This document shows positions 1-64,000 of a stretch of 64,000 bases of DNA, piece by piece; the stretch's first letter is position 1; each line of letters opens with the position of its first letter. A program made the translations under genes and the position numbers. The stretch comes from Escherichia coli (GTDB taxonomy: Bacteria > Pseudomonadota > Gammaproteobacteria > Enterobacterales > Enterobacteriaceae): assembly GCF_016026235.1 (NCBI RefSeq), contig NZ_CP065613.1. One strand, 5' to 3'. The notes beneath the pieces are model-generated. The model made no database searches. It saw only the letters and a list, made by a program, of their open reading frames with translations, and had not been told where the DNA came from.

Positions 1-573
1 ATGACCTTGCTAAAAAAAGGGGCGGCGGCAGATAAAAACAGCGCCCGCGTATCCATCATGATGGGACGCGTGTTTATGGCGAAAGGAGAATACGCCAAAG
101 CCGTCGAAAGTTTGCAACGCGTGATATCCCAGGACAGAGAACTGGTCAGCGAAACGCTGGAAATGTTGCAAACCTGCTATCAGCAGTTGGGTAAAACTGC
201 CGAATGGGCAGAATTCCTGCAACGCGCGGTGGAAGAGAACACCGGTGCCGATGCTGAATTGATGCTTGCTGATATCATCGAAGCGCGCGACGGTAGTGAG
301 GCCGCACAGGTCTATATTACGCGCCAGCTTCAGCGTCATCCGACCATGCGTGTGTTCCATAAGTTAATGGATTACCACTTAAATGAAGCGGAAGAAGGGC
401 GTGCCAAAGAGAGCCTGATGGTGCTGCGTGACATGGTTGGCGAAAAGGTACGTAGTAAGCCTCGTTATCGCTGCCAGAAATGTGGTTTTACCGCATACAC
501 CCTCTACTGGCATTGTCCGTCTTGTCGGGCCTGGTCAACCATTAAACCGATTCGCGGTCTTGATGGCCTGTAA
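1..573 (+). CDS. lapB: LapB/YciM (LPS assembly regulator), C-terminal part; 5' end lies outside the window
   Basis: ORF 1..573; C-terminal rubredoxin-like CxxC...CxxC motif (CQKCGF...CPSC) typical of LapB; position immediately upstream of pyrF. Confidence 0.85.
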   Translation: MTLLKKGAAADKNSARVSIMMGRVFMAKGEYAKAVESLQRVISQDRELVSETLEMLQTCYQQLGKTAEWAEFLQRAVEENTGADAELMLADIIEARDGSEAAQVYITRQLQRHPTMRVFHKLMDYHLNEAEEGRAKESLMVLRDMVGEKVRSKPRYRCQKCGFTAYTLYWHCPSCRAWSTIKPIRGLDGL

Positions 574-765
574 TTTTTTAAAAAAACCGATTTTAGTTAC
601 AACATACTAGTTATTGATGTCCCATTGTGCTCCGGCAACGACGGCGCAGAAAAAGCCTGCCAGGGGAGAAATCGCAACTGTTAATTTTTTATTTCCACGG
701 GTAGAATGCTCGCCGTTTACCTGTTTCGCGCCACTTCCGGTGCCCATCATCAAGAAGGTCTGGTC

Positions 766-1503
766 ATGACGTTAACTGCTTCATCTTCTTCCCGCGCTGT
801 TACGAATTCTCCTGTGGTTGTTGCCCTTGATTATCATAATCGTGATGCCGCGCTGGCCTTTGTCGACAAGATCGACCCACGCGATTGTCGTCTGAAGGTC
901 GGCAAAGAGATGTTTACATTGTTTGGGCCACAGTTTGTGCGCGAACTTCAACAGCGTGGTTTTGATATCTTTCTTGACCTGAAATTCCACGATATCCCCA
1001 ACACTGCAGCGCACGCTGTCGCTGCTGCAGCTGACTTAGGCGTGTGGATGGTGAATGTTCATGCCTCTGGTGGGGCGCGTATGATGACCGCAGCGCGTGA
1101 GGCACTGGTTCCGTTTGGCAAAGATGCACCGCTTTTGATTGCTGTGACAGTGTTGACCAGCATGGAAGCCAGCGACCTGGCCGATCTTGGCGTGACACTG
1201 TCACCTGCAGATTATGCAGAACGTCTGGCGGCACTGACGCAAAAATGTGGCCTTGATGGTGTGGTGTGTTCTGCTCAGGAAGCTGTGCGCTTTAAACAGG
1301 TATTCGGTCAGGAGTTCAAGCTGGTTACGCCGGGCATTCGTCCGCAGGGGAGTGATGCTGGTGACCAGCGCCGCATTATGACGCCAGAACAGGCGTTGGC
1401 GGCTGGTGTTGATTATATGGTGATTGGTCGCCCGGTAACGCAATCGGTAGATCCAGCGCAGACGCTGAAAGCGATCAACGCCTCTTTACAGCGGAGTGCA
1501 TGA
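766..1503 (+). CDS. pyrF: Orotidine-5'-phosphate decarboxylase
   Basis: ORF 706..1503; likely true start at the internal ATG (MTLTASSSS...), giving ~245 aa; OMP decarboxylase signature VVVALDY...[10 protein letters not shown]. Confidence 0.93.
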
Positions 1504-1829
1504 TGAGTGATTCCAACAGCCGTCTGGTCTACTCAACGGAAACCGGACGTATTGATGAGCCAAAAGCGGCCCCAGTACGCCCTAAAGGCGATGGTGTGGT
1601 GCGTATTCAGCGTCAGACCAGTGGACGTAAAGGTAAGGGCGTTTGCCTGATTACCGGTATCGATCTCGATGATGCCGAACTGACAAAACTTGCAGCGGAA
1701 CTGAAGAAAAAATGCGGCTGCGGCGGAGCAGTTAAAGATGGAGTTATTGAAATCCAGGGCGATAAGCGTGATTTATTAAAATCACTACTTGAAGCGAAAG
1801 GGATGAAGGTAAAACTCGCAGGCGGTTAA
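1503..1829 (+). CDS. yciH: SUI1/eIF1-like translation factor YciH
   Basis: ORF 1500..1829 ([11 protein letters not shown]...); start overlaps the pyrF stop (ATGATGA), suggesting translational coupling. Confidence 0.9.
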   Translation: MSDSNSRLVYSTETGRIDEPKAAPVRPKGDGVVRIQRQTSGRKGKGVCLITGIDLDDAELTKLAAELKKKCGCGGAVKDGVIEIQGDKRDLLKSLLEAKGMKVKLAGG

Positions 1830-1834
1830 CATAA

Positions 1835-1860
1835 AAAGCCACGGATATATCCGTGGCTTT
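1835..1860. terminator. Bidirectional intrinsic terminator between yciH (+) and osmB (-)
   Basis: Perfect hairpin AAAGCCACGG-ATATAT-CCGTGGCTTT; followed by a T-run on the minus strand (osmB side) and TTCGAATATTTT on the plus side. Confidence 0.65.
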
Positions 1861-1954
1861 CGAATATTTTACTGTGTGTATTATTCAGTTATTTCGTACT
1901 GAACAGAATCAAGCGTATTATAATTGCGAGTCGATAATCGACATTTATTTACGA

Positions 1955-2173
1955 TTATTTACCGACCTGGTGACCAATAACACCACCGACAGCTGCGCCA
2001 CCTAATGTACCCAACGTACTGCCATCGGTCAGTACTGCACCGCCTAATGCCCCTGCACCCGCGCCGATTGCGGTGTTGCGGTCCCGTTTAGACCAGTTAG
2101 AACAGGCACTCAGAGACATTGCCAGGGTAATTGCCAGAACAGCCGCGGTCATTTTTTTGCTCGTTACAAACAT
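1955..2173 (-). CDS. osmB: Osmotically inducible lipoprotein OsmB
   Basis: 72 aa; lipobox LSAC after the signal peptide; glycine-zipper rich mature region. Confidence 0.93.
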   Translation of the reverse strand: MFVTSKKMTAAVLAITLAMSLSACSNWSKRDRNTAIGAGAGALGGAVLTDGSTLGTLGGAAVGGVIGHQVGK

Positions 2174-2441
2174 AATACTCTCTCCTGAATTTATGATTCA
2201 CGGAAGTAAGCTCTCTATAACTATAATAGCTAAGAATAAGCCTGGTGAAATTATTCCGTGAAATCCGCTCGCGCGCAGGGTTATATCACGCAGGTGATAA
2301 TGACTTCCTGTTATATCGCTGATAATAATTTTATATCTTGAGAGTGTTAATAACAGGTAAATAGTCTTAATTATCAACCAGGAATCATCTTAGAGCGGAT
2401 GATTTGCCAAACTGCAAATCATCCGTAGAGAAGGGAAATGG

Positions 2442-3191
2442 TTAAATGTCAACGACGTGAACGGTGAGTTTACTGTGCTCAAGATGCATCAGATCGCTGG
2501 CGCGTATTTTCGAATCGGTAATCACGCGATTGAATCGCTCAACGGGACCGATGGAGTATGAATGTACAGCACCAAATTTCGAGCTGTCAGTCAGGACTAT
2601 CGCTTCGCACTCTTTTTCCAGCACGGCATTGACCACATCGGTACGCATCATATCGCGACCGGTGAATCCAGTTTCAGGTTGCCAGCCATCAATACCAATA
2701 AATGCTTTGCTGAAATGCACCTGCTGGATGCACTGGCGTGTCAACGGGCCAACCATACTTTCGCTTTTTTTCTGGTACATGCCACCGAGCAAAATGACTT
2801 CACAAGGCGCGTCTTTCAGCAAATGCGCGATGTAGCTGCTGACCGTGATGATAGTGACATTTTTCTTCTGCTCCCCCAGAGTCCGGGCGAGCAGGGCATT
2901 GCTGCTGCCATTTTCGATAAAGATGGTTTCGCCCGGTTGAACCAGTGACGCGGCAAACTCGGCGAGTTCACGCTTCAGCGTATAGTTGCTCATCATACGG
3001 GTTTCGACGTCATCACTATCAAGCGAAACTGCAAAGCCATGTGCACGGCGGAGGTAACTCAGTTTTTCGAGGGTGTTGAGATCCTGGCGAATGGTAACTT
3101 CAGAAACTCCAGTGGCTTTTGCCAGATCGGTTACGCTAACCTGACCCTGGTCAATGACCATCTGTAGAATAGTTTGTTGTCGGGAATTCAT
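2442..3191 (-). CDS. yciT: DeoR-family transcriptional regulator YciT
   Basis: 249 aa; N-terminal HTH (QQTILQMV...[20 protein letters not shown]) plus DeoR C-terminal sugar-binding domain. Confidence 0.9.
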
Positions 3192-7823: not shown

Positions 7824-8951
7824 TTAATATGTCTCACCCAACGCGATTTTTAAGCGATTTATCCAGCCACACAGCCCGCTCCATACCAGCAGATTAATAA
7901 TCTGCGTTGATGATTTTTCGTGTTCGAGTAAAGGGCTGAACTGGGCGGCGCTAAAGCGATCGGGTGCTCGGGTCAGCCATTGTATCGCCTGAACGGTAGC
8001 GTGCTCAACAGAATGACGGTCAGCCCATTGGTTAATTTCATTTTCGCCCTTGCGCAGAAGGGGGCTGATTTTTTTATATTCATTTGATGAATCCATACAG
8101 GCGGCAAAACAAGCAGGACTGCCATTTATCCGCGCGCATAACAACGCCGCAAGCTGATTATCCGGCTGTGTATTAACCCGTGTACTGTTTAACAACCTTT
8201 CGAGAAGGGAAAGTGAAATAGGGTGGAGAGAGAGTGTTTCGGCCAGTTGGCAAAGTTCTGCTGTTGAACTTTTTGTGTACTCTTCAGGTAGTTTTTCCAC
8301 CTCATAGCTGCTTCGCCAGCGTATTGATTCATCAGCAAACAGTGACGCGTCGGCGTAGTTTTGTATTTCCAGACCGGGTAACCAGCGTACCGGGTGCCCG
8401 AGATAAGCCTGAAATGTCGCAATGGTCCGCGCCTGAAAGCCAATAAAACCAATGATTTGGTTAATGATCACACAGTCCCAGGCAGTAAGACCGACGTCAT
8501 TCAGATGCTGGCGCGATCGGTTGTCGATAATAGAAGGCGAGCTAGCCAGTTGGCGGGCATATTGCGTGATTTGTGCCAACCTATGATTGCTTTCCCTGGA
8601 GGAATCAGGCCCGGGGAGCGGCGTAAGTCGCGCCGAATAGTAGTTACATAACCGCTGGACGCCGCAAACCTGAGCAACCGTCAGGGCCGTAGACAAGCGT
8701 TCATAAGCGGTGAAGGTCTGTGAACGGGTCACGGTAAGCTGGTCAGGGAACAATTCCACTGCAAGAACGCGCGCAGGGACCAGCCATGAAAGGAAGGGAG
8801 CCAGCGTTTCTTCATCATGGATCACGTCGAGCAGAAAGGGATCGCTGACCTTTGCGGCTTCCGGGACCAGAGGCAGAACGTCATACTCCGCAGTACTGGA
8901 TTGCGTTTCATGATACCAGTGGCTTTTGCCGGTGATGTGGCGTTGTTCCAT
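7824..8951 (-). CDS. yciW: Uncharacterized protein YciW (CMD/AhpD-like)
   Basis: ORF 7824..9029; probable start at the internal Met ([13 protein letters not shown]...) giving ~375 aa. Confidence 0.8.
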
Positions 8952-55203: not shown

Positions 55204-56496
55204 CTGAGGAATCCCCAGAAAACAAGACAGGCATAGTGAGATGTGATCTAATTGATTGTGCTAACAATTTCAAGGAGATCACCACTATGCCTGCACGTTC
55301 ATTATGCCAAAATTTCCTTAACAATATACTGGCCCCTTTGCATCTTTACCGTCAAAAATCACTGATTGACGCAACTAATGCTGTAATAAATGGCGCTTCC
55401 CTCACACTTACCAGTATCGGGCGTCATTTAACCGGTACGGCATCAGTTAAAAACAAAATAAAGCGGGTGGATCGACTGTTGGGGAATCGACATTTGCAAA
55501 ATGAGGTTTCCACCATTTTTCAGCGAATTACCCAAAAGATTACGCGGGGAATGTCTCGTGTTGTGATACTCATTGACTGGAGTGCTTATCATGCCTCTCG
55601 TTTTCAGCTTTTGCGGGCAAGCCTGGCATGTGACGGGCGTTCTTTACCGTTGATGAGTTGTGTCGTTCCATCATCACAGACAGCGAATGCAGATGTACAT
55701 GAGCGTTTTCTGGAATCGCTTGCTGAGTGCTTTTCCCCGGGACTGATGTCATTGTTATTACAGATGCCGGTTTTCAGGGGCGATGGTTCCAACAGCTCCG
55801 CTCCCGTGGCTGGACCTATATTTGCCGGGTACTGGGCAATCATTATTACAATGTTGGTAATGGCTGGGAAAAGGTGTCGGACTCAGGCACAAAAGCATCA
55901 ACGACAGCAATTTATTTAGGTGAAGGCCTGCTGGGTCGAGATAAAAATGCACAACATGAAGGGCATTTTTATCTTTATAAAAGTAAGCCTAAAGGTCGTA
56001 GATTTAAACGCTCGAAGGAAAGAGCAACCAGACCATCGGTGACGGCTAAAGCTCGTACTGCCGGGAAATCACCATGGTTTATTTTCACAAACAGTACTGA
56101 GTTCTCGCCAAAACAGGTAATGAAATTATACAGCCGTAGAATGCAAATTGAGCAAAATTTCAGGGATGAAAAAAATCCTCGCTGGGGATTTGGACTACGG
56201 TTTGGTGCCAGTCATTCATCCGGGCGGGTCACGGTATTGAGTCTGATCGCAACATTAGCCAGTATCATTATGTGGTTAAGCGGTTTCAGCCTGGAAAACA
56301 AAGGGATACATCATAAATATCAGGCAAATACAGTGAAGCACAGGCGAGTCATCTCGTTATTAAAACTGGCGGAGAATGTGATTCGACATTCTCCACTCAT
56401 ACTAAACACACTGTCACTTGACGCAGGGCTGAAAGTTCTACAGCAACGGTATACCAATATGATAATGGTTTACTAAATTTTCTGGGGATCCCTCAG
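55204..56496 (+). mobile_element. IS10-like (IS4-family) insertion sequence, copy 1 (1293 bp)
   Basis: Terminal inverted repeats CTGAGGAATCCCCAGAAAA / TTTTCTGGGGATCCCTCAG; flanked by direct repeat AGATTGTCC(C). Confidence 0.9.
55287..56476 (+). pseudogene. IS10-like transposase, frameshifted (copy 1)
   Basis: Reading frame splits into ORFs 55197..55919 and 55727..56476; C4 run at 55735-55738 where copy 2 has C5. Confidence 0.85.
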
Positions 56497-60615: not shown

Positions 60616-61368
60616 TCAGGCAACGTTACGCGTATGACCAGCAAGCTGGGCCAGCGCATCGTTATTTTCGATGGTGATGTATTTACCTTTGACTGCCAGC
60701 ATACCGCTTTTCTGGAAGCGACCTAGCAGACGGCTGATGGTTTCTACCGTCAGGCCCAGATAGTTACCGATATCGCCACGAGTCATCGTCAGGCGGAATT
60801 CACGAGGGGAGAAGCCGCGTTGGGCAAAACGACGGGACAGGTTGTAGATGAATGCAGCCAGACGTTCCTCGGCATTTTTCTTCGACAACAGCAAGATCAT
60901 GTCCTGATCGCCTTTGATTTCACCGCTCATCAGACGCATCATCTGCTGACGCAGATTCGGCATTTTACCGGACAAATCGTCCAGCGTTTCGAACGGGATT
61001 TCACATACCATCGAGGTTTCCAGCGCCTGAGCGAAGCTCGGGTGATGGCCGCTGCCGATGGCGTCAAATCCCACCAGGTCGCCAGCTAAATGGAAACCAG
61101 TGATTTGCTCGTCGCCTTGCTCAGTGATGGTATAACTTTTAATCGTACCGGAGCGGATGGCATAAAGCGATTTAAGTTCATCACCAGCCTTAAACAGCGT
61201 CTGGCCTTTCTGAATAGGCTTCTTCCGCTCAATGATATTATCAAGCTGATCAAGCTCATGTTCGTTGAGTGTGAACGGGATGCAAAGCTGGCTGATGCTG
61301 CAATCCTGGCAATGGATAGCACAACCGCCAGACTGAATGCGCCGTATAATTCGCTTTTCCGGGATCAT
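60616..61368 (-). CDS. fnr: Anaerobic global regulator FNR (CRP family, [4Fe-4S])
   Basis: ORF 60616..61425; start at [29 protein letters not shown] (N-terminal Cys cluster); C-terminal HTH. Confidence 0.95.
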
Positions 61369-61387
61369 AGGTCTGCTCAAGCCGTAA

Positions 61388-61401
61388 TTGATATTTGTCA
61401 A
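61388..61401. promoter_or_regulatory. FNR-box-like site in the fnr promoter (candidate autoregulation site)
   Basis: TTGAT-ATTT-GTCAA versus consensus TTGAT-N4-ATCAA; 20-33 bp upstream of the fnr ATG. Confidence 0.5.
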
Positions 61402-61497
61402 TTTTAACATCTTTTTAGGGAGCAAGTAAGTCTAAGCAAACCTTAACAGCAGAGAATTCCGATATTAGATGTAAATATATGTCTATCTATTTGAAAA

Positions 61498-61515
61498 CCC
61501 TTAAGTTGTTAAGGG
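61498..61515 (-). terminator. Intrinsic terminator downstream of ogt
   Basis: Stem CCCTTAA-GTTG-TTAAGGG; minus strand continues with TTTTCAAA. Confidence 0.6.
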
Positions 61516-61562
61516 TAACTTTACATAAAAGTGTGAACAAGCTGGCACAAATTGTTTAATGT

Positions 61563-62078
61563 TTACAGCAAAAGATAACCTTCGTGGCGCAATAACCACT
61601 CTTTTCGCTGAACTCCGCCTGCATATCCGGTCATGGTGCCGTTTCGGCCAATAACCCGATGGCAAGGTACGACGATGCTGATGGGATTCGATCCGTTTGC
61701 CGCACCAACGGCACGCGCCGCGCCAGGGCGGCCCAATTGTTCAGCCAGTTGGCCGTAATGCATTACCTGCCCGCAGGGGATAGTGCGTAGAGTTTTCCAG
61801 ACTTCGCGCTGAAATGGCGTCCCCCCTGTGGCAGTGGGAAGCGTATCAATAATGCTAAGATTACCGGCAAAATAATCACGAAGCTTGTCGCTTAAACCGC
61901 CTGGGTTGGTGGCAGAAATGCGCTCATAGCCTTCTTTGCGATAATGGATGTCCAGCAGCTGCACCATGCGTTCGCTGTACTCTTCCCATTCAACCGCCCG
62001 CAGGCGAAATTGCTCATCGCAAATCACCCACAGTGGACCCAGTGGCGTGGCAATTTTTTCTTCAAGTAATCTCAGCAT
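61563..62078 (-). CDS. ogt: O6-alkylguanine-DNA alkyltransferase
   Basis: 171 aa; active site PCHRV. Confidence 0.93.
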
Positions 62079-62112
62079 CCGTTCTCTCTTAAGACAAACG
62101 TGGGTAAATCCC

Positions 62113-63406
62113 CTGAGGAATCCCCAGAAAACAAGACAGGCATAGTGAGATGTGATCTAATTGATTGTGCTAACAATTTCAAGGAGATCACCACTATGCC
62201 TGCACGTTCATTATGCCAAAATTTCCTTAACAACATACTGGCCCCTTTGCATCTTTACCGTCAAAAATCACTGATTGACGCAACTAATGCTGTAATAAAT
62301 GGCGCTTCCCTCACACTTACCAGTATCGGGCGTCATTTAACCGGTACGGCATCAGTTAAAAACAAAATAAAGCGGGTGGATCGACTGTTGGGGAATCGAC
62401 ATTTGCAAAATGAGGTTTCCACCATTTTTCAGCGAATTACCCAAAAGATTACGCGGGGAATGTCTCGTGTTGTGATACTCATTGACTGGAGTGCTTATCA
62501 TGCCTCTCGTTTTCAGCTTTTGCGGGCAAGCCTGGCATGTGACGGGCGTTCTTTACCGTTGATGAGTTGTGTCGTTCCATCATCACAGACAGCGAATGCA
62601 GATGTACATGAGCGTTTTCTGGAATCGCTTGCTGAGTGCTTTTCCCCCGGGACTGATGTCATTGTTATTACAGATGCCGGTTTTCAGGGGCGATGGTTCC
62701 AACAGCTCCGCTCCCGTGGCTGGACCTATATTTGCCGGGTACTGGGCAATCATTATTACAATGTTGGTAATGGCTGGGAAAAGGTGTCGGACTCAGGCAC
62801 AAAAGCATCAACGACAGCAATTTATTTAGGTGAAGGCCTGCTGGGTCGAGATAAAAATGCACAACATGAAGGGCATTTTTATCTTTATAAAAGTAAGCCT
62901 AAAGGTCGTAGATTTAAACGCTCGAAGGAAAGAGCAACCAGACCATCGGTGACGGCTAAAGCTCGTACTGCCGGGAAATCACCATGGTTTATTTTCACAA
63001 ACAGTACTGAGTTCTCGCCAAAACAGGTAATGAAATTATACAGCCGTAGAATGCAAATTGAGCAAAATTTCAGGGATGAAAAAAATCCTCGCTGGGGATT
63101 TGGACTACGGTTTGGTGCCAGTCATTCATCCGGGCGGGTCACGGTATTGAGTCTGATCGCAACATTAGCCAGTATCATTATGTGGTTAAGCGGTTTCAGC
63201 CTGGAAAACAAAGGGATACATCATAAATATCAGGCAAATACAGTGAAGCACAGGCGAGTCATCTCGTTATTAAAACTGGCGGAGAATGTGATTCGACATT
63301 CTCCACTCATACTAAACACACTGTCACTTGACGCAGGGCTGAAAGTTCTACAGCAACGGTATACCAATATGATAATGGTTTACTAAATTTTCTGGGGATC
63401 CCTCAG
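62113..63406 (+). mobile_element. IS10-like (IS4-family) insertion sequence, copy 2 (1294 bp, intact)
   Basis: Same terminal repeats as copy 1; flanked by direct repeat GGTAAATCC(C); same orientation as copy 1. Confidence 0.9.
62196..63386 (+). CDS. IS10-like DDE transposase (IS4 family)
   Basis: 396 aa; motifs IKRVDRLLGNRHL, ITDAGF, YSRRMQIEQNFRD, YQANTV match IS10 transposase blocks; SD AAGGAG 9 nt before the ATG. Confidence 0.88.
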   Translation: MPARSLCQNFLNNILAPLHLYRQKSLIDATNAVINGASLTLTSIGRHLTGTASVKNKIKRVDRLLGNRHLQNEVSTIFQRITQKITRGMSRVVILIDWSAYHASRFQLLRASLACDGRSLPLMSCVVPSSQTANADVHERFLESLAECFSPGTDVIVITDAGFQGRWFQQLRSRGWTYICRVLGNHYYNVGNGWEKVSDSGTKASTTAIYLGEGLLGRDKNAQHEGHFYLYKSKPKGRRFKRSKERATRPSVTAKARTAGKSPWFIFTNSTEFSPKQVMKLYSRRMQIEQNFRDEKNPRWGFGLRFGASHSSGRVTVLSLIATLASIIMWLSGFSLENKGIHHKYQANTVKHRRVISLLKLAENVIRHSPLILNTLSLDAGLKVLQQRYTNMIMVY

Positions 63407-63554
63407 GGTAAATCCCCGGACCTATCGGCAGACCAACAAGATACCACGCCAGCAACATCAGCAGCCATACCACCAAAAAGATAAGCGGATAGGGCAAGAC
63501 TAACGAATAGTAAGTACCCAGTTTCGCGTCTGGTTTGTCGCAGTCTGATAGCAT
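63348..63554 (-). CDS. Small hydrophobic ORF whose native C-terminus is replaced by IS-derived codons
   Basis: ATG at 63552-63554 (MLSDCDKPDAKLGTYYSLVLPYPLIFLVVWLLMLLAWYLVGLPIGPGIYP...); the frame runs into the IS end at 63406; without the IS it would end ...GIYPRLS ~10 bp before the ogt start; no clear SD. Confidence 0.25.
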   Translation of the reverse strand: MLSDCDKPDAKLGTYYSLVLPYPLIFLVVWLLMLLAWYLVGLPIGPGIYPEGSPENLVNHYHIGIPLL

Positions 63555-64000
63555 AAAGCGATTTTTTGATTTTTCTGCCTGAAGAAATGAGGGCAAGCCA
63601 TCACATGGATCGAGGGTGGGATAATTCCAGTCAGTGAAATTTTACCGTAGGCTATCTGTTATTTGATTCTGTGGCGTGATAGCCGCCAGACACCACTGAA
63701 CTCGTCACTCATTCCCCAATCCCGGCGAGAATGTGGTTATTTACAGAGCTAAAAATGAATAAAAAATAGAGCCTGTCGACATCCGCCAGACTCTACAGTA
63801 CACACAGCAGTGCATCCTCGTCTTAAATCCGGCCTGGGGTCCTTGTGACCGGTGACAGTGTTATAACGGTTTTACCCATCCGTTGCCAATTTTCTTCAGT
63901 GACAGATTTCACGAAAATATAAGTTAAATCATTTGTCTTGTGATTGCATAATCATGCATCGTTAATCGACGAGTAAATTTACCGGGCGAGTAGCCCGTTC

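Follow-up and report, generated by a model that had tools for sequence, protein, structure and literature searches.

The ogt promoter of Escherichia coli K-12, which is activated by NarL and repressed by Fis (Ruanto et al. 2020, PMC7419079), is described as having a -10 hexamer TATCTT with an A at -11 and an extended -10, together with two NarL 7-2-7 sites centered at -44.5 and -77.5 (PMC7419079). The K-12 map of this part of the chromosome reads ogt-abgT-abgB-abgA-abgR-mcaS-smrA, and the whole ogt promoter lies inside the 3' end of abgT. The mcaS gene (b4426, also isrA or IS061) specifies the small RNA McaS, whose synthesis is activated by cAMP-CRP (PMC3634460) and which exerts Hfq-dependent repression and cleavage of csgD mRNA, activates flhDC and, by titrating CsrA, activates (de-represses) pgaA (PMC6061853, PMC3634460, PMC10729762). 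K-12 McaS carries four GGA motifs, two of which bind CsrA, and the 5'-most of the four overlaps a flhD pairing site (PMC10729762). A second arrangement of the same interval is represented in RefSeq by strains EC958, Nissle 1917, and 90-3040, in which the abg genes are deleted down to pseudogene stubs of abgT and abgR and a gene for an AraC-family regulator is a neighbor. A third system that bears on what follows is ISEc60, an IS10-like insertion sequence of the IS4 family with a DDE transposase, a target duplication of 9-10 bp, and IS10-like CTGAGGAATCCCC ends. The DNA described here is the last part (positions 63407-64000, hereafter the tail) of a 64,000-nucleotide stretch of E. coli sequence, which we refer to as the window.

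The ogt-smrA interval in its abg-deleted form

The upstream genes in the ORF list of the window (uspE, fnr, and ogt) place it in the E. coli chromosome, and alignments together with RefSeq annotation identify the tail as the chromosomal interval between ogt and smrA in its abg-deleted form. The 601-bp tail is matched in 5402 of the 5426 complete E. coli genomes; a single contiguous match, corresponding to the deleted arrangement, is found in 1170 of the 5426, with a best identity of 99.8%. Strain 90-3040, which is contiguous with the tail at this identity, has in RefSeq the order ogt, an incomplete AbgT-family pseudogene, a frameshifted and incomplete LysR-family pseudogene, an AraC-family regulator, an MFS pseudogene, and smrA. 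When the tail is aligned to K-12, the 3' end of abgT is fused straight to the 3' end of abgR, and mcaS follows. The junction, at 63539-63544, accounts for the absence of approximately 5 kb (most of abgT, all of abgB and abgA, and approximately 75% of abgR), and a TGT microhomology is possible at this site.

The junction is identical in 90-3040, EC958 (ST131), and Nissle 1917, and the annotated gene layout of EC958, Nissle 1917, and CU42ET-1 is that of the window. This common junction and layout points to one old deletion event, which would have taken the abg sequences just listed and given rise to a widespread haplotype. The window shares with the RefSeq members of this haplotype the junction, the abgT and abgR pseudogene stubs, and the AraC-family neighbor, and differs from them in also bearing an insertion sequence (IS).

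The identities and boundaries of the parts, as established by these comparisons, make it highly probable in our judgment that the tail is the ogt/abg/mcaS locus, composed of abgT and abgR stubs, the ogt promoter, mcaS, and the end of the AraC-family gene. Each of these parts corresponds to a feature that is already known. An earlier note on this DNA, prepared from the sequence alone, had described the region as poor in ORFs, and the ORF list bears this out: no complete ORF of at least 60 aa lies in 63600-64000, the longest being of 34 aa. ORFs cut by the window edge are not in the list, and the AraC-family gene on the minus strand, which is a real gene, is one of them. The scarcity of ORFs reflects what the region is made of, namely promoters, a non-coding RNA gene, and pieces of pseudogenes.

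The mcaS gene

The same note had raised the option of a small RNA without giving a location for it, and this option proved right: a full-length mcaS gene of 96 nt lies on the minus strand at 63758-63853. It matches Rfam family RF00115 over model positions 1-96 of 96 with a score of 108.8 bits, compared with a gathering score of 42, and an E value of approximately 1e-20. McaS is the single Rfam family found in the whole window, and a permissive Rfam scan of 61000-64000 (E up to 1) returned McaS alone. The minimum-free-energy fold consists of three hairpins followed by UUUUUU, the last hairpin being the Rho-independent terminator. A simple terminator scan misses this terminator, whose stem is long and contains a bulge, whereas the covariance model and the fold both show it. 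The covariance-model alignment keeps all pairs; the z-score based on fold only is weak (-1.6).

The position of the gene is that expected of mcaS, since it adjoins the 3' end of abgR on the opposite strand and on the smrA (ydaL) side: the abgR remnant ends at 63752, the 3' end of mcaS is at 63758, and in relatives smrA comes after the AraC-family gene and an efflux cluster. All four GGA motifs are present at positions corresponding to those in K-12, from which CsrA binding is predicted. Score, full-length match, three stem-loops, U-tract, position, and GGA motifs thus together identify the gene as a member of RF00115.

Compared with b4426 of K-12, the copy in the window has the same three-hairpin architecture, U-tract terminator, and four GGA motifs, and occupies the same site by the abgR 3' end, convergent with abgR. 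The 3' two-thirds of the RNA are nearly identical between the two and show single changes in the second hairpin and the stem of the terminator. In the 5' hairpin the stem is preserved, but most positions of the loop differ, the loop reading UCACAAGGACCCCAG in the window and GCAGAGGAGACAAU in K-12; in the Rfam consensus this loop is variable except for the GGA. The 5' hairpin (63829-63853, minus strand) marks a natural allele in which the loop is largely rewritten and the GGA kept; the K-12 loop overlaps a site of flhD pairing and CsrA binding. Alleles of the type found in the window are the minority, occurring in approximately 1457 genomes versus approximately 3925 for the K-12 type. Judging from the extent of the loop change, the target range of this McaS could differ from that of K-12.

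The region upstream of mcaS (63854-63923, minus strand) is 92.9% identical to its counterpart in K-12. The transcription start of mcaS was placed by counting from the K-12 annotation and published descriptions. We assign a putative -10 box TATAAC to 63865-63860, a putative -35 box TTGGCA to 63889-63884, and a candidate CRP site, a palindrome resembling the CRP consensus (CGTGAAATCTGTCACT), to 63913-63898, all on the minus strand. The conservation of this promoter region and the CRP-like palindrome are consistent with the reported activation by cAMP-CRP (PMC3634460). By analogy with K-12, we infer that mcaS of the window is expressed and acts as it does there; with a promoter and a terminator of its own, the gene would make an Hfq- and CsrA-binding small RNA.

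In place of the mcaS-smrA spacer found upstream of mcaS in K-12, the window has the AraC-family gene. The stop codon of that gene is 71 nt upstream of mcaS on the same strand, and no recognizable terminator-like site lies between the two, so that McaS might also, or even mainly, be processed from the 3' untranslated region (UTR) of a read-through AraC-family mRNA, instead of being made solely from its own promoter. We regard this route as unlikely, given that the K-12 promoter region is conserved, including the -10, -35, and CRP-like elements, and that K-12 makes McaS without an upstream AraC-family gene. The suggestion in the earlier note that the region could be a 3' UTR therefore holds in a weak sense only, that of the downstream position and shared orientation of mcaS, and we retain transcription of mcaS from its own promoter as the preferred reading. 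In the PGAP-annotated non-K-12 records that we inspected, mcaS is unannotated and the feature under the match is given as "none", so that the locus looks empty in standard annotation.

Remnants of abgR and abgT and the ogt promoter

The abgR remnant occupies 63545-63752 on the plus strand and corresponds to AbgR residues ~231-302. In a tblastn comparison it aligns to AbgR residues 231-248 and 260-302 in different frames, with an in-frame stop in each, and hence contains two in-frame stops and a frameshift. Relatives in RefSeq have at this position a [quoted passage not shown], and the unbroken frame with an N-terminal helix-turn-helix and a C-terminal substrate-binding domain that characterizes a LysR-type AbgR is not present in the tail. 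The DNA of the remnant is 74.8% identical to K-12, a value that reaches 97.7% in the abgT stub and 98.4% in ogt. This divergence is, on the sequence comparison, too large for ordinary drift within the species, and it may point to a haplotype that is old or was imported, more than to decay of recent date. Remnant-type abgR at an identity of at least 80% is found in 1172 genomes, a number close to that of the genomes with the deletion (1170), and the other 4196 genomes match it at ~75% through the intact gene of the K-12 type. We saw no intact abgR of the divergent allele; the genomes inspected among the 1172 hold the remnant only.

That 1170 genomes retain this stretch and its junction, at an identity of at least 95% within the haplotype, could be explained if 63545-63752 had gained a new function as a further small RNA or a regulatory site. 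We give this very little credence, as the stretch has no Rfam match even at E values up to 1 and no promoter or terminator pair called within it, Nissle-type strains have a further 19-bp deletion there, and its stops and frameshift are as in a decaying pseudogene. The abgR stub in the tail is most probably just that, decayed and functionless.

The abgT remnant (63407-63538, minus strand) contains the codons for AbgT residues 462-505 of 508, and the last three codons and the stop sit to the left of the IS. All 44 residues are identical to residues 462-505 of K-12 AbgT (tblastn), and the DNA is 97.7% identical, with three differences that are all synonymous. A hydrophobic ORF that the earlier note had singled out for a homology search has this remnant as its body: residues 7-49 of the ORF match the last 43 positions of AbgT profiles, corresponding to positions 462-504 of 508 in NCBIfam NF008459 (81 bits, compared with a cut-off of 864) and to positions 457-498 of 502 in Pfam PF03806. 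A member of the AbgT family has a full length of approximately 500 aa and reaches the curated score; the match here is partial, is confined to a C-terminal fragment, and falls far under the cut-off, which marks the remnant as a pseudogene rather than a functional member. In RefSeq relatives PGAP likewise annotates the stub as a pseudogene, "AbgT family transporter, incomplete".

Embedded in this remnant is the NarL-dependent ogt promoter (63431-63516, minus strand). We located its elements by our own count on the K-12 and window sequences from the published description (PMC7419079), and the putative +1, placed in the same way, falls near 63431. The extended -10 TGgTATCTT (hexamer at 63443-63438), the NarL II site TATCTTTTTGGTGGTA (63483-63468, center -44.5), and the NarL I site TACTTACTATTCGTTA (63516-63501, center -77.5) are all on the minus strand and identical to K-12, so that a -10 with its extended TG and two 7-2-7 sites at the published spacing are all in place at the sequence level. 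The window thus shares with the K-12 promoter of Ruanto et al. (2020, PMC7419079) the extended -10, both NarL sites, and their spacing; it differs in that 132 bp are left of the surrounding abgT, up to a point ~20 bp upstream of NarL I. With homology to abgT stopping at 63538, this close to NarL I, the deletion spared almost exactly the ogt promoter, and selection presumably limited the deletion boundary so as to spare it. The stub has lost its coding role for the transporter and has kept a complete NarL-activated promoter for ogt. A deletion of ~10 bp between the NarL sites has been noted in some pathogenic strains (PMC7419079), and this remark fits Nissle 1917, which, at the equivalent of ~63485-63500, has a 12-bp deletion and several substitutions between or at the NarL sites.

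The hydrophobic ORF exists as the earlier note had described it, with an ATG at 63554-63552 on the minus strand and no obvious Shine-Dalgarno sequence, none being visible upstream; its extent is different. Of the 53 codons ascribed to it, 49 lie outside the IS, and the ORF does not end at the insertion but extends by another 19 codons inside the IS, stops at 63348, and is 68 aa long. In relatives that lack the IS, 90-3040 among them, the ORF would have 54 aa and run to the stop of abgT itself. The first six codons, including the ATG, cross the deletion junction into DNA antisense to the abgR stub, and the Pfam and NCBIfam matches start only at residue 7; with its start codon derived from antisense abgR DNA, the ORF is a chimera of the junction. 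It is hydrophobic because it codes for the last transmembrane segment of AbgT.

If a true gene for a small membrane protein had been created at the abgT/abgR junction, it would account for an ORF that starts with ATG and encodes a single, strongly hydrophobic helix (54 aa in the IS-free relatives) and for the identity of its 44 AbgT-derived residues to K-12, where all three DNA differences are synonymous. The ORF, however, lacks the ribosome-binding site, the conserved start, and the intact frame conserved in relatives that such a gene would have. No promoter is called upstream of it; its ATG, which lies in the antisense abgR remnant, reads ATA in EC958; in Nissle the 12-bp deletion and further changes fall within it; and its C terminus is altered by the IS in the window. 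PGAP treats its DNA as a pseudogene, and the embedded ogt promoter already explains why that DNA is conserved. The small protein raised as an option in the earlier note is for these reasons not supported, the ORF being the C-terminal stub of AbgT, and we consider a coding function of the ORF very improbable.

The AraC-family gene end and an ISEc60-like element in the ogt leader

The tail is closed by the 3' end of an AraC-family regulator gene (63924-64000, minus strand; stop at 63924-63926) that continues past the edge of the window. The translation of 63998-63924 gives the last 24 codons, TGYSPGKFTRRLTMHDYAITRQMI, and the stop, and all 24 residues are identical to the C termini of WP_074433484.1 of 90-3040 and of a 271-aa protein of EC958. 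These two proteins carry the Pfam domains HTH_18 and HTH_AraC. In EC958, Nissle 1917, and CU42ET-1 the gene is followed by divergent HlyD and DHA2-MFS efflux genes and then smrA, and the gene whose end is seen in the tail would, as in these relatives, head an HlyD/MFS efflux cluster. Upstream of the mcaS promoter, K-12 keeps 36 bp of the 3' end of the AraC-family gene at 78% identity (positions 8823-8858 of the K-12 excerpt, equivalent to 63924-63959). This relic suggests that the AraC/HlyD/MFS efflux cluster, kept in the abg-deleted haplotype, was probably lost from the abg-intact haplotype of K-12.

The hairpin CGGGC-GAGTA-GCCCG, which the earlier note had placed one base off at 63984-63998, is real and lies at 63983-63997, inside the AraC-family coding sequence, where it is formed by the codons T-G-Y-S-P-G of a conserved C-terminal AraC motif ~19 codons before the stop. 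Perfect G+C-rich hairpins of 5 bp number 131 in the 64-kb window, or ~2 per kb, and the presence of this one at the edge is therefore not more than chance. Its reading as the intrinsic terminator of the minus-strand gene beyond the window, for which a stable stem of five G+C pairs with a 5-nt loop (~-10 kcal/mol) can be cited, has almost no credence and is refuted by the reading frame, which runs on for ~19 codons to 63924-63926; the minus-strand sequence after the hairpin, GUAAAUUUAC, has no U-run, neither strand has a T-run after it, and the terminator scan makes no call at this site, so that of the features of a Rho-independent terminator the stem is present and the U-run and the location after a stop codon are absent.

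At its other end the tail abuts an ISEc60-like insertion sequence of the IS4 family, the second of two copies in the window (62113-63406, plus strand; 1294 bp). Its transposase gene (62196-63386) is intact and encodes 396 aa that match NCBIfam NF033591 with 360.5 bits, compared with a cut-off of 152. The terminal inverted repeats, CTGAGGAATCCCCAGAAAA and CTGAGGGATCCCCAGAAAA, match at 18 of 19 positions, and the target-site duplication GGTAAATCCC is present in a left copy at 62103-62112 and a right copy at 63407-63416; were the start of the IS set one C earlier, the duplication would be of 9 bp instead of 10. In 90-3040, EC958, Nissle, and K-12 the site is empty and present once. Copy 2 shares 99.8% identity with elements that carry the annotation "IS4-like element ISEc60 family transposase", and the DDE transposase, the inverted repeats, and the 10-bp duplications around both copies identify the elements as members of the IS4 family (ISEc60), from which copy 2 shows no notable difference; copy 1 has a frameshifted transposase gene. 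Copy 1, at 55204-56496 with the duplication AGATTGTCCC, interrupts mppA, the gene for the murein tripeptide-binding protein. Relative to copy 2, it has one C fewer in a C-run (55735 versus 62644), which shifts the transposase frame after ~150 residues, and one single-nucleotide difference (55325 T versus 62234 C). The exact junction of copy 2 has no match among the GTDB species representatives, and none of the 5426 complete E. coli genomes has a match that spans both of its junctions.

The target of copy 2 lies at approximately +16 to +25 of the 49-nt ogt leader, a position that follows from the counted transcription start, and the NarL promoter and the ATG of ogt (62078) are now 1.3 kb apart. 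The element has landed so as to part the start codon of ogt from its promoter, and this separation of promoter and gene by a 1.3-kb IS is a further difference from K-12. Within copy 2, a terminator-like hairpin with an 11-bp stem and a T-rich tail (63306-63279, minus strand) faces the ogt promoter, and a consensus scan of 61950-62450 found no outward-facing (pOUT-like) promoter at the left, ogt-proximal end of the IS. From this arrangement we infer that the IS uncouples ogt from nitrate control in the strain of the window.

The tail had been flagged for a possible new small protein or small RNA and resolves into known parts, and seemingly empty intergenic DNA at the mcaS locus is worth checking against Rfam. 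We propose, tentatively and as a pair of ideas that we would sooner doubt than accept, that the IS may cut ogt off from its NarL/nitrate-responsive promoter and that the minority McaS allele may shift target preference. If the second were true, an altered McaS preference would travel with the abg-deleted, AraC/efflux-bearing haplotype. If the first were true, O6-alkylguanine repair would be uninduced during nitrate respiration and alkylation mutagenesis could rise. As a presumed natural regulatory mutation, the IS between the ogt promoter and ogt is simple and can be tested.
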